Translations under genes and position numbers: made by a program
Part shown: piece by piece, positions 1,748-55,138 of the stretch
How the letters are laid out: every line of letters begins with the position of its first letter
Numbering within the stretch: position 1 is the first letter of the stretch
Origin: Eledone cirrhosa
Lineage: Eukaryota
NCBI GenBank assembly: GCA_964016885.1
Contig: OZ024745.1
Location: forward strand, 79,980,001 to 80,044,000
Reading direction: 5' to 3'
DNA: 64,000 bases
The notes under the pieces: model-generated
Database searches by the model: none
Told to the model about the DNA's origin: nothing
Seen by the model: only the letters and a program-made list of their open reading frames with translations

Positions 1748-2138
1748 ATATTGTTATACTTTGGGAGGGTCATGCTGCCAATAAAAACACACGCACCTGT
1801 TGGTTTTCACTTCAATTTATTACGAATTTCCAGTTGGCTGGTTCGATAACCGGAAGGTTGTTTATATATTGTCAAAGCTCTTTCGTCACACATTCTGTGA
1901 CCTCCTCAGTGACTAGGTTTTTATTTTGTATCTCTCCTTTGTTCTGTCCTACGCCATCTTGTTTTTGTGATAACCTTCCAGTTATCGAACCAACCAAACC
2001 AACCAGAAATTTATAATAAATTGAAAACCAACAGGTGTGTGTGTTTTATTGGCAGCATGAGTCTCCCAAAGTATAACAATATCTGTTTCAACACACGTTT
2101 TCAGATAAGAAATCTTGCAAAACAAATTCAAAAACGAA
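1748..2138. mobile_element. ORF-less Penelope-like pLTR remnant with inverted arms (same family as 52520-55138)
   Basis: Arms 1748-1859 and 1972-2083 are reverse complements; sequence matches the pLTR at 52520-52819; flanked by (TA)n. Confidence 0.85.
1871..1913 (-). ncRNA. Minimal type I hammerhead ribozyme (family A)
   Basis: gtca-CTGAGGA-g-gtcaca gaatg tgtgac-GAAA-gagc-TT-tgac. Confidence 0.75.
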
Positions 2139-3576: not shown

Positions 3577-3619
3577 ACATAAATCTTTCGTTGCACATCT
3601 GCAACATCGTCAGTGGTGT
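3577..3619 (-). ncRNA. Hammerhead ribozyme motif (family B), inverted-arm copy
   Basis: Exact reverse complement of the 4770-4812 motif. Confidence 0.7.
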
Positions 3620-4769: not shown

Positions 4770-4812
4770 ACACCACTGACGATGTTGCAGATGTGCAACG
4801 AAAGATTTATGT
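4770..4812 (+). ncRNA. Hammerhead ribozyme motif (family B)
   Basis: ca-CTGACGA-t-gttgca gatg tgcaac-GAAA-gatt-TA-tg; strong stem II, weak stem I. Confidence 0.7.
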
Positions 4813-7239: not shown

Positions 7240-7540
7240 ATATATGCAAAAGTTTTATTTAAAATTGTTGGGTTACAACGAGTAAATATTTTATAACTGA
7301 TATAAAGCACTCAAGTTTTGGAGTAGATATACGATATTAAACAAATGGAAACTATATTTATAAAACCATATCTATTTCATTATACATATTTCAGGGATAC
7401 CATATTAAAAATATGGCATGCCTTCTTGTATTTTATCTGAAGAAGGCATGCCATATTTTTAATATGGTATCCCTGAAATATGTATAATGAAATAGATATG
7501 GTTTTATAAATATAGTTTCCATTTGTTTAATATCGTATAT
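7240..7540 (+). mobile_element. Short ORF-less hammerhead-bearing element (family C) with fold-back arm; second copy at about 35430-35675
   Basis: Shared start atatgcaaaagttttattt...gttgggttacaacgagtaaatattttataactga; 7326-7427 is the reverse complement of 7440-7540; (TA)n on both flanks. Confidence 0.8.
7429..7494 (+). ncRNA. Type I hammerhead ribozyme (family C)
   Basis: tattttat-CTGAAGA-aggcatgccatatt ttt aatatggtatccct-GAAA-tatgta-TA-atgaaata; 8-bp stem I covaries with the copy at 35567. Confidence 0.85.
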
Positions 7541-33005: not shown

Positions 33006-34306
33006 ATGTATGTTATGTATGTATGACCCCTTAGCCTTTGTCAAGGCAGAATTCTAGGAGAAGGAAAACTCTGATATAACACCTGCAACCCTGATGGTGG
33101 TATCCAATGATGTTGACTTGTTCTTCTTTTTGGTAAATATCATCTTGGTTAAGAGAGTGGGACTGGCTTTGTGCAGTGCCTTTGCTCACTATAAAAGCTT
33201 CACGGCACAGGCATTGCTTTATATCTGGAGATCTCTCTGCACTTGTCATCACATGGTACCACGGGCCCAGCACTATGTGTCAATAATTGTCACAAGTGTA
33301 GTGTTTGTACCAGAGTTTTCAAGTCGCTGGCTGGACTAAAAAGCCACACTCGTTCAGTGCATCGGTAGGGTTTCTCCTACATGGATATAAAGTAGTGGCC
33401 GTACTCGAAAATGAGTTGGCAGCCACCATGTATGTATGTATATATAAATATATATATATAGGAACGCGTAGGACCCCGATGGCTGAGCTCAAGCCGTTTC
33501 GACGGCTAATTCTGGACTAAATGGAAATTTTTATCCTGGTATATGAATAGCCAAGCTTCTCAGGGGGTAATTCCATATATGGTAAAAGTGATTGTCACAA
33601 GGATTGGTCAAAAGTTTGTTGTTGAGACACATAATTCTATCATGGCAATTTGTGGAAGGAAGGGGTAGCTGAACCTGCCAGTAGAAGAAAGAGGGAGAGG
33701 GAGAGGAGGAAACCCAGTCGTGCGTTGATAGTGCCAACTACAGCAGGGCAGGAGGTCAAGCAAGTATACTAGGGAGGGGGAGGGGGAGGAAGATGAAACA
33801 ATAAGTAAATCAATATGGAGTAAATATATAGAAGAATACCAAGAATGTTAAAAATATAAAAAAACAATTTCTGGTTACTATTCCCTAACGACAGTCATCA
33901 AGTCTCTCACTGGTACTGCTAAACTATAGAAAAGTTTACTAGGTGGGACGGAATTGTAATGAGACCATTTTAAGAGTTAGTAGTAATCAAACGAGTATAT
34001 CTTACGGTGACAGGTCAACAAGTGGGGGGCCAAAATACTAAAGAAACTACCACGAAATAATAATTCAAAGTCCCGAAACTAATACGAAATAATTGCCTCC
34101 ACCCTAGGCACAAGGCCAGCAACCACCCAGTGCAAAAAATAAACTAATACGAAATAATAATTCAGAATCCCGAAAATGAATACTAATACTATCTCTAAGG
34201 GTGCTGCTACGATACAAAAATTCTAGTGCAAACTACATAAATGCTCGTACGAGGTATATGAAAAATTTGATACGAAAAATTAATTCAGAATCCCCCCCCC
34301 CCCCAA

Positions 34307-34468
34307 AGTGTTGATGGTATCAGAGCCTTGGGACATATGGGATATGTCCCAAGGCTCTGATACCATCAACACTATAAACACAGAGCTGGCATGTCTAAGA
34401 ACTGACTAACTGCCTGAGGTCATAGCCATTCAATGGCTATCATCGAAATATATATAGCAGTAAATAAA

Positions 34469-34472
<4 letters not shown>
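34307..34472 (+). mobile_element. Mini element: 32-bp fold-back hairpin, degenerate hammerhead (family G), AATAAA, (TA)n
   Basis: Perfect arms 34307-34338 and 34342-34373; actgc-CTGA[tga missing]ggtcatagccatt c aatggctatcatc-GAAA-tatata-TA-gcagt at 34409-34461. Confidence 0.75.
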
Positions 34473-34516
<44 letters not shown>

Positions 34517-34517
<1 letters not shown>

Positions 34518-35083
34518 AATAAGAAAAATATTCAAAATAAATTTCAAAAAATTCACTGTACTTACTATAGTTACCTTTACCGAGTCGGTTTCGAGTCTCA
34601 AAAATAAATGGACAGTCCTTCTGGCTCGTTAATTTATTAACCTGCCATTGAACCACATTGGCATATGGTTGGACAATACATGTGTCCCTATACGCTTTTT
34701 GCGTGTAGGGATATATACTTTATTATTATTATTCTCCTCTTGGTCGAGATAAAATTTGGTCGTTGTGACTGCTGCTATTTATAGTGGTAGTAGACTGACC
34801 TCCCTGCCTCTGCTTCTATCTTTACACACGGCACTGGACAGAATTGCTTCCACATCATTCATTCTCATCTCGGGAACAATTTTGAATAGCGCCAGTTCGT
34901 AATTTGAACTTGGGAATTTTATATTCTCCGAGTGAAAAGAACCTTCTGATGAGAGTTTATCTTTTCAATGGAAGGCCGCAAGGACTGTCCATTTATTTTT
35001 GAGACTCGAAACCGATTCGGTAAAGGTAACTATAGTAAGTACAGTGAATTTTTGGAAATTTATTTTGAAACTTTTTCTTATTT
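34517..35083. mobile_element. ORF-less element with about 104-bp inverted arms carrying the family H hammerhead
   Basis: 34517-34620 is the reverse complement of 34980-35083; (TA)n flanks. Confidence 0.8.
34941..35027 (+). ncRNA. Canonical type I hammerhead ribozyme with extended stem II (family H)
   Basis: acctt-CTGATGA-gagttt...agactc-GAAA-ccg att cgg-TA-aaggt; all core nucleotides present, 5-bp stem I, stable stem III, GUA triplet with predicted cut after 35022. Confidence 0.9.
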
Positions 35084-35566: not shown

Positions 35567-35632
35567 TATTTTGTCTGAGGAAGGCATACCATATTTTTAA
35601 TATGATATCCCAGAAATATATATAACGAAATA
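35567..35632 (+). ncRNA. Type I hammerhead ribozyme (family C)
   Basis: tattttgt-CTGAGGA-aggcataccatatt ttt aatatgatatccca-GAAA-tatata-TA-acgaaata. Confidence 0.8.
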
Positions 35633-50729: not shown

Positions 50730-50790
50730 ATATATAATCATGGAGTACAAGTCAATGGGTTATAATTCACTTCATTTATATACATAATCG

Positions 50791-50847
50791 CTGTTATATA
50801 TATTTCAGTGATAACTGTTATGCAGCAGTTATGACCTCATCAGACAG
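50791..50847 (-). ncRNA. Type I hammerhead ribozyme (family G)
   Basis: ctgt-CTGATGA-ggtcataactg ctgcataa cagttatcact-GAAA-tatata-TA-acag; stem I extendable (cataa/ttatg); covaries with the copy at 34409. Confidence 0.85.
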
Positions 50848-51001
50848 TCTTATGTTGAACAGAAAAAAACAGAAAAACATGAAGAAATAAAAGTTTCGAT
50901 TCATTGATATGCCCCAGGCTGATATTTGGTGTTGCTTTCTCAAAGTACCGGTGACATATGGCTTAAAATAAATAGCCACACAGCATCAGCAAAAGTGATA
51001 T

Positions 51002-52747: not shown

Positions 52748-52792
52748 AGTCATAGTCCTTTCGTCACACACTCTGTGACCTCTTCAGTGACT
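52748..52792 (-). ncRNA. Minimal type I hammerhead ribozyme (family A)
   Basis: agtca-CTGAAGA-g-gtcaca gagtg tgtgac-GAAA-ggac-TA-tgact. Confidence 0.85.
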
Positions 52793-54397: not shown

Positions 54398-54442
54398 AGT
54401 CACTGAAGAGGTCACAGAGTGTGTGACGAAAGGACTATGACT
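54398..54442 (+). ncRNA. Minimal type I hammerhead ribozyme (family A), inverted pLTR copy
   Basis: Identical to the 52748-52792 motif on the opposite strand. Confidence 0.85.
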
Positions 54443-54774: not shown

Positions 54775-55138
54775 AAAGCACTGTTTAGACAAATCACAGA
54801 GGCAATAAACATAAATGAACTCCAACCAAAATTAAATTGAAAACATGAATGGAATAGCAACATCATAACTTACAATTAAGGACAAAATGAAAACACACAC
54901 ACACACATAGAACAAACAACCAACCAGTAACATGTAAATAAACAAATAAATAAACAAATATAAACACACACAGACACCCGGATGTAACACATGCGCAAAC
55001 TAAGCACACAACACACACAAAAACAAGATGGCGTAGGACAGAACAAAGGAGAGGCACAAAAACAAAGAAAAGAATCCCCAGTCACTGAAGAGGTCACAGA
55101 ATGTGTGTCGAAAGAACTTTGACAATATATGAACAACC
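54775..55138 (+). mobile_element. Second Penelope 3' fragment (family A), cut off by a SINE
   Basis: ALFRQITEAININELQPKLN then pLTR sequence; SINE head begins at about 55138. Confidence 0.85.
55081..55123 (+). ncRNA. Minimal type I hammerhead ribozyme (family A)
   Basis: gtca-CTGAAGA-g-gtcaca gaatg tgtgtc-GAAA-gaac-TT-tgac; one stem II mismatch. Confidence 0.7.

Follow-up and report, generated by a model that had tools for sequence, protein, structure and literature searches.

A damaged solo pLTR of a Hydra-clade Penelope-like family in Eledone cirrhosa and the copy ends of its family

The segment 34342-34472 (+) of the window, the 64,000-nucleotide stretch of Eledone cirrhosa DNA analyzed here, is by its sequence marks the pLTR of a Hydra-clade Penelope-like element that forms a new family of a known clade. 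We are fairly confident that this stretch holds a damaged solo pLTR beside (TA)n, joined head-to-head to a second Hydra family, probably made by the element's own RT and carrying a hammerhead that is probably inactive. An earlier note had described 34307-34472 as a 165-bp mini element. That unit is replaced here by the pLTR of an autonomous Penelope-like element, whose short copies share the haplotypes of its long copies.

Results

The search for the 33-mer hammerhead motif of this pLTR revealed 2,353 exact matches in the 3.0-Gb genome and 0 for the reversed control. Divergence within the family is low, about 3%. At locus L067, two direct pLTRs lie 3,973 bp apart and flank an ORF; the upstream pLTR runs on into the 5'UTR, and the downstream one ends in GTCAC and then (TA)n. 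The family unit measures about 4 kb, with a 1.2-kb 3'UTR and a tail of 90 nt that is present in 26 of 30 copies extending past GTCAC, and it runs 34 nt further in the 3' direction than the unit in the window.

Locus L224 has an open frame of 847 aa with an RT and, at its C terminus, a GIY-YIG-like domain (YRDD at 317, VVY...YIG at 727). In the part of PMC8557442 available to us, the diagnostics of the Hydra clade are DKT, CxCx5C, CxxC, CxH and RWK. The frame carries DKT at 86, CxCx5C at 708 (CNCRDPSLC), CxxC at 806 (CNLC) and CxH at 834 (CRH). The RWK position reads QLWS in L224 and QRWS in L067, which is not exact; Hydra-1_Obim and other Hydra proteins likewise show LW or QW there in a by-eye comparison with the sequences in that source. 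The assignment to the Hydra clade is based on these motif marks, with the reference proteins compared by eye as they appear in the paper's text. The same portion of the source states that the clade inserts into (TA)n and that its elements are generally <3 kb (PMC8557442). L067, with 3,973 bp from pLTR to pLTR, is longer, and this trait is descriptive, not diagnostic. The Penelope-like EN+ traits found in the family were a single RT/GIY-YIG ORF, direct pLTRs, inverted 5' copies, a tail, and a hammerhead in the pLTR.

Profile searches gave little for this protein. A GIY-YIG match in Pfam was below threshold (E = 0.0077), and no Pfam match was obtained with the full 847-aa frame. For the frame, 429 homologues were counted; of the 120 that were listed, those carrying a name came from the molluscs Solemya and Argonauta, besides one generic label. 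The endonuclease piece gave 0 of 120 candidates against longer proteins, a PDB sequence search returned one meaningless match (E 0.93), and structure prediction of the frame without an alignment reached a pLDDT of 34.

In a related family, whose protein identity is about 60%, the open frames measure 893, 856, and 814 aa (C28:119679395, C4:240469486, and C3:311383897), with near-identical scores across its copies, and this family may be younger and still active. Upstream of one family copy, at L062:6566-8637 (-), there are fragments resembling Rep/helicase, which may be Helitron-like.

The locus in the window reads, in order, (TA)n, the 3' part of the second family, a 32-bp arm, GGG, the solo pLTR, and (TA)n. 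The left arm (34307-34338, -) repeats the opening 32 nt of the pLTR in inverted orientation, with a reverse-complement match of 100%, and forms 32 perfect pairs with 34342-34373 around the GGG loop (34339-34341, +). Arms of comparable length (18-57 nt) occur at other hairpin loci. The final G of the loop occupies position -1 relative to the preferred 5' end, in place of a C in the parent, and is possibly cap-derived. The pLTR (34342-34472, +) starts at the preferred 5' end ATATGTCCC, as judged from pairwise alignment and family counts. It contains AATAAA at 34463-34468 (+), which is family-wide and a candidate poly(A) signal, and it adjoins the (TA)n target microsatellite at 34471-34521; TATA follows the family 3' end at 80 of 90 loci. 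The 32-bp hairpin (34307-34373), the AATAAA, and the (TA)n are all present, as the earlier note had described. A coding meaning was considered for the short ATG frame at 34344 and for an upstream 'LPDGLN' string, and was dropped; both belong to the 3'UTR, with the true stop about 1 kb before them.

Pairwise alignment with a near-typical copy showed that the window pLTR differs by one substitution, a 3-nt deletion (TGA), and the absence of the last 34 nt. The core-deletion pattern has three matches in the genome, compared with 2,353 for the adjacent motif, and CTGAT, the mark of an intact core, precedes the motif at 83 of the 90 sampled loci. Since the deletion occurs in one long and two short copies, it fits independent slippage in TGATGA. 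The clipped 3' end is matched nowhere else in the genome. We infer that both lesions, the loss of TGA and the clipping at the 3' end, represent private damage produced by slippage or microhomology. The idea that the missing 34 nt are the Penelope tail was abandoned, because the real tail is +90 and the window end is unique.

The second Hydra-clade Penelope-like family is represented by a 5'-truncated 3' part at 33461-34306 (-), with its 3' end in (TA)n near 33460. The approximate interval 33430-34307 matches 14 other loci at 92-97%, and at these loci a Hydra-type RT/EN frame follows on the same strand, with tblastn E values as low as 5e-45. The 32-bp inverted arm thus links the window pLTR, in head-to-head orientation, with a truncated member of the second Hydra family. 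Two small hairpins occur at the 3' end of this family, at 33461-33720 (-), and a scripted search of 33400-34310 found no canonical hammerhead in its part of the composite.

The earlier note had also proposed a family whose architecture combines hairpin, hammerhead, AATAAA, and (TA)n. The hairpin does not belong to the family unit: a hairpin at the CATATG site occurs at 15 loci, the window copy included, and among the 30 best-matching loci it was present in the window copy only. Six of the 15 are centered on the CATATG palindrome (four exactly, one in mutated form, and one carrying an additional TA). In most, a single short arm of about 12-57 nt is present, whereas four consist of full inverted pairs.

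We also considered that the hairpin arose otherwise than by fold-back of cDNA at insertion, namely by self-priming on antisense RNA, by a later inverted duplication, or as an assembly error. Antisense-template self-priming has been proposed for head-to-head Penelope palindromes in the accessible part of the Adineta study (PMC3846280), and the window copy does carry other private damage. None of the contigs listed for runs X1-X3 (one sample, possibly the assembly source) spans the 34306/34307 junction, a result that is uninformative in a repeat; in these contigs the family retains TGA and has (TA)n ahead of 34342, and they were not counted as support. Such origins nevertheless seem unlikely. 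The 15 loci share their center, and at several of them (L173, L175, and L177) the short arms are joined to a second inverted, tail-bearing copy, as expected at insertion. In addition, the two outer ends of the window composite are both element 3' ends in (TA)n. We therefore regard the left arm 34307-34338 as a likely fold-back product.

The pLTR contains a minimal type I hammerhead with a palindromic helix III (dimer type) at 34410-34460 (+), in which the core CUGAUGA is cut to CUGA. Stem I is CTGC/GCAG, CTGA stands without the following TGA, and GAAA is found downstream of stem II. Stem II pairs 34418-34428 with 34434-34444 over 11 bp with one C.C mismatch, and the palindrome ATATATAT precedes the putative UA cleavage site, after A34456. 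The stretch folds with z = -2.57, and 4 of 200 shuffles were equally good. The three missing core nucleotides had already been pointed out in the earlier note; with the CUGANGA core incomplete, the window hammerhead is likely inactive. Rfam listed no hammerhead among the 150 of 205 matches listed for the window, which were sub-threshold, of miRNA type, and derived from repeats and the palindrome. At three loci whose motifs are intact, it gave 0 at gathering score. The hammerhead is therefore called from its motif and from covariation.

A hammerhead with an intact core is found at 50791-50847 (-), with a homologous CATATG at 50955-50960. The earlier note had treated it as a member of the same family; it belongs to a separate, older sister family, to whose members it is 82-88% identical. 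The sister-family pLTR aligns with that of the window family from CATATGT through the hammerhead to the tail. The minimum-energy fold of 50786-50852 is not a hammerhead (z = -0.14). The compensatory changes described between the two hammerheads are indeed present, one pair in stem I and three in stem II.

Further families with the same palindrome were present in the loci examined, and we extended the comparison to 12 hand-picked hammerheads of six families, chosen by a hammerhead-shaped pattern. In this alignment, 95.2% of the cells pair, and 11 of the 14 pairs change on both sides, in 45 cells. Slid controls gave at most 4 pairs and 9 cells. The cell count was reached in 0 of 500 shuffles and the pair count in 26 of 500. 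Because the sequences were pattern-selected and are related, we take the covariation as support and not as a significance test. It holds between six families, the copies within a family being too similar to covary, and therefore points to constraint on the parents, as PMC4209133 reports for the minimal hammerheads of Penelope-like elements, and not on the window copy. Selection on RNA structure, as claimed in the earlier note, is thus supported for the lineage of parent elements by these sequence comparisons (six families, 11/14 pairs), which say nothing about the window copy, whose core deletion has three genomic matches.

The C.C mismatch, which occupies position four in stem II (columns 15 and 39 of alignment A1), is invariant in 12 of 12 sequences from six families, and the stem II pairs next to it covary. 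It is possibly a tertiary contact or a protein site. In cofolding, an intact family copy pairs its palindrome between molecules, a predicted intermolecular helix III.

In Drosophila virilis Penelope, according to the sections available of the two papers, the promoter is internal, and helix I marks the end of an intron that lies 46 bp beyond the start (PMC2377424, PMC4209133). The sister family (loci L134-L162) has an intron-like segment of 48-55 nt, composed of GTAAG, a pyrimidine tract, and TAG, that ends exactly at helix I. This candidate intron, identified by sequence, was present at 14 of the 23 sister-family loci scored, of 30 fetched. The alignment places no such segment in the window family.

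Other hammerheads occur in the window. A further family is found at 35571-35628 (+) and 7433-7490 (+), which shares the palindromic helix III and the stem II C.C mismatch, and its copy at 7327-7540 sits in a long inverted repeat. Two more families share the hammerhead core: (a) at 52759-52787 (-), 54403-54431 (+), 55085-55113 (+), and 1881-1909 (-), and (b) at 3586-3613 (-) and 4776-4803 (+). Some of their copies are inverted pairs 1.2-1.6 kb apart. Both are likely other Penelope-like terminal repeats.

The ends of the copies were determined in 90 of the first 100 matches to the exact 33-mer, all on C1; of the 10 omitted, six were paired copies fetched separately and four were not fetched. Of these 90 loci, 49 begin at -74 to -79 from the motif, 6 are shorter, and 35 extend further upstream. 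Hence 49 of the 84 copies that reach the preferred 5' end (the ATATG site) end there. Genome-wide patterns gave 175 matches with A or G before the site and 2,084 with C or T. By hand count, the first 100 of the latter comprised 59 that read through, 31 with AT, and 8 with AC, and the counts together suggest that copies ending at the ATATG site make up a little under half genome-wide. In the first 100 of the 175 matches, again counted by hand, G:A before the site was 81:19, compared with a background G/(G+A) of 0.15-0.43. The excess G follows either phase of the TA run, and by our estimate G-starts are about 1/7 of the site-starting copies.

The ORF-linked copies extending as far as the upstream repeat or its border number 21, of which 7 stop short of the site and 14 continue beyond it. 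Thus 0 of 14 ORF-linked upstream pLTRs stop at the ATATG site (p = 4e-5). There are two preferred 3' ends. The first is GTCAC, at 83 of the 90 loci; the second is at +85 to +91 in the 5'UTR, in 26 of 30 copies taken as the first of 131 read-through matches, where two pairs may each be one event. Of the 30 tail-motif matches, only 6 have their start at the ATATG site or close to it.

The preferred 5' end likely marks the RNA start of the element, judging from the position and neighboring bases of these ends. It could also be a truncation hotspot only, where the RT stalls or the cDNA anneals to (TA)n through ATAT microhomology, and no RNA starts. T-A repeats do precede most short copies, and ATAT and a palindrome are present at the site. 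The base before most of the site-starting copies is T, as microhomology with (TA)n would also predict. Microhomology at 5' joints is, moreover, known for Penelope from the available part of PMC3846280. Three other ATAT sites, one of them longer, are nevertheless hardly used (0/89, 1/27, and 1/25 ends), and the excess G is left unexplained. If the stall were a property of the template itself, the ORF-linked copies would be expected to stop as well, and none of them stopped there. The sister family shows the same preferred site, together with fold-backs. On this balance a mere hotspot is improbable, and we retain an RNA start as the likely meaning of the site. The ORF-linked copies also argue against a simple start-site model, and a second template is an added assumption that accounts for them.

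A self-propagating, non-autonomous mini element of about 168 bp, SINE- or retrozyme-like and spreading from its own copies, would explain why about half of the copies have both ends in common. Solos could be transcribed if the promoter is internal, and animal retrozymes are reported, in the portion of the preprint at hand, to be pLTR-derived and to leave monomers (bioRxiv 10.64898/2026.07.22.740005). We consider this quite improbable. The head-to-tail junction of the unit had 0 matches genome-wide with a spacer of up to 30 nt, and no direct neighbor beyond one 25-nt piece was found at the 90 loci. The haplotypes are 22:18:9 in the 49 short copies and 15:12:6 (plus 2 other) in the 35 long ones; none is private to the short copies. 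Divergence is similar (3.5% in short and 2.9% in long copies), and the hairpin is not a family feature. A fixed-end mini family had been suggested by the 30 best DNA matches, which showed a fixed 169-bp unit in (TA)n, but the query started with G and biased the list, and the motif-based sample overturned it. A circle closed through (TA)n was also dropped, given the 0 tandem junctions.

Rfam models MIR1511 and MIR845_1, presumably plant miRNA families, match the hairpin at 34308-34372 below threshold (E 3e-6 to 1e-3), but a functional small-RNA (miRNA-like) gene is very improbable, because the 47.7 and 34.9 bits are far under the gathering scores of 100 and 81, both strands score alike, as with any perfect palindrome, and the arms are a transposon end. 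Within the arm, at 34315-34326, is TGGTATCAGAGC, which we take to resemble the tRNA-Met primer site of plant LTR elements; this resemblance likely explains the sub-threshold MIR845/MIR1511 matches. A role of TGGTATCAGAGC as a tRNA primer site was rejected, as there is no LTR element at the locus.

Discussion

The mechanism that we propose, from (TA)n nicking through template choice, is as a whole somewhat probable. The RT/GIY-YIG protein would nick (TA)n, and the RT would prime inside the RNA at the border of pLTR and 5'UTR, at GTCAC or at another site located 90 nt beyond it. With a capped linear transcript as template, about 168 nt would then be copied to the RNA start at ATATG, and a cap-derived G would sometimes be added at the cDNA end. 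This end, lying at the CATATG palindrome, might sometimes fold back and self-prime a short arm, which would then be joined to cDNA primed on the other strand. A template that lacks this end, namely hammerhead-cut circular or multimeric RNA, would give rise to the long and the more-than-unit copies. The copy ends suggest two RNA templates, one capped and linear and the other circular or multimeric. Both have precedents in the accessible parts of earlier papers: an untemplated 5' G in L1 and SVA insertions was ascribed to cap copying (PMC3287187), and circles have been proposed (PMC4209133).

Similar elements are known. In the available text of PMC8557442, Hydra-clade PLEs share with our family the C-terminal GIY-YIG, DKT, CxCx5C, CxxC, and CxH, a hammerhead near the 3' end, the (TA)n target, and head-to-head inverted copies. 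Hydra-1_Obim of Octopus bimaculoides shares, by eye, DKTNNLY, ITIKDHKPNF, GLYRDD, and KIFNRH with the protein of the family, whereas its hammerhead, as listed, has other stems, and it is listed with 'no pLTR' where our family has clear pLTRs (PMC8557442). The family also differs in its length (about 4 kb with a 1.2-kb 3'UTR, vs. <3 kb for the Hydra elements described) and in its tail (90 nt, vs. 30-40 nt; PMC8557442).

Metazoan PLE minimal hammerheads, as far as the text at hand describes them, are like those of our family type I, with a long helix II, a short helix I, and a palindromic helix III (PMC4209133). Other shared traits are their occurrence for the most part as lone, dispersed motifs left by truncated elements, their covariation from family to family, and dimer-type activity. 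Our family differs from them in an 11-bp helix II whose C.C is kept in all 12 aligned sequences, and the window copy in the absence of three core bases (PMC4209133).

Two 3' ends at the border of pLTR and 5' region, with the tail between them, AT-rich targets, and extension of both strands are also described for Anolis Poseidon PAc in the accessible part of PMC11167929. For PAc, two internal priming sites and the tail were demonstrated in vitro, where hammerhead cleavage was not needed (PMC11167929). Our family, unlike PAc, has its hammerhead and its two ends upstream of the ORF and a tail of 90 nt, and a fixed-length solo class is not reported for PAc in that portion of the paper (PMC11167929).

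The Penelope elements of Adineta vaga also have solo pLTRs, palindromes of 18 and 38 bp at pLTR 5' ends, and head-to-head junctions (PMC3846280). Their solos are few and were ascribed to recombination or deletion, in the text available to us (PMC3846280), whereas solos are about half of the >2,000 copies of our family and have one precise 5' end. Non-LTR retrozymes are likewise short, non-coding, and pLTR-derived with a type I hammerhead, according to the accessible portions of two sources (bioRxiv 10.64898/2026.07.22.740005; PMC7229834). In the window family, unlike these, we found no tandem arrays, and the autonomous parent shares haplotypes with the short copies. A class of solo pLTRs with fixed length and a leading G was not found described in the literature searched, which lay outside subscription papers, Repbase, and bioRxiv supplements.

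Taken by itself, the locus is unremarkable transposon debris, and the interest of the family lies in its record of copy ends and not in the window copy. The function of the hammerhead in Penelope-like elements is called unclear in the part of PMC8557442 available to us, and the family bears on two questions, the role of the hammerhead and the regeneration of tandem structure in these elements. With >2,000 copies, about 3% divergence, two exact 3' ends, and a near-complete frame, it makes the ideas of a start site and a circular template directly testable. We tentatively propose that the linear template mass-produces dead 168-bp solos with a cap G, and that hammerhead-cut circular or multimeric RNA yields long copies that regenerate the promoter. 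If this were true, it would be genomic evidence for what the Penelope hammerhead does, and lone minimal hammerheads in animal genomes would be by-products of internal priming.
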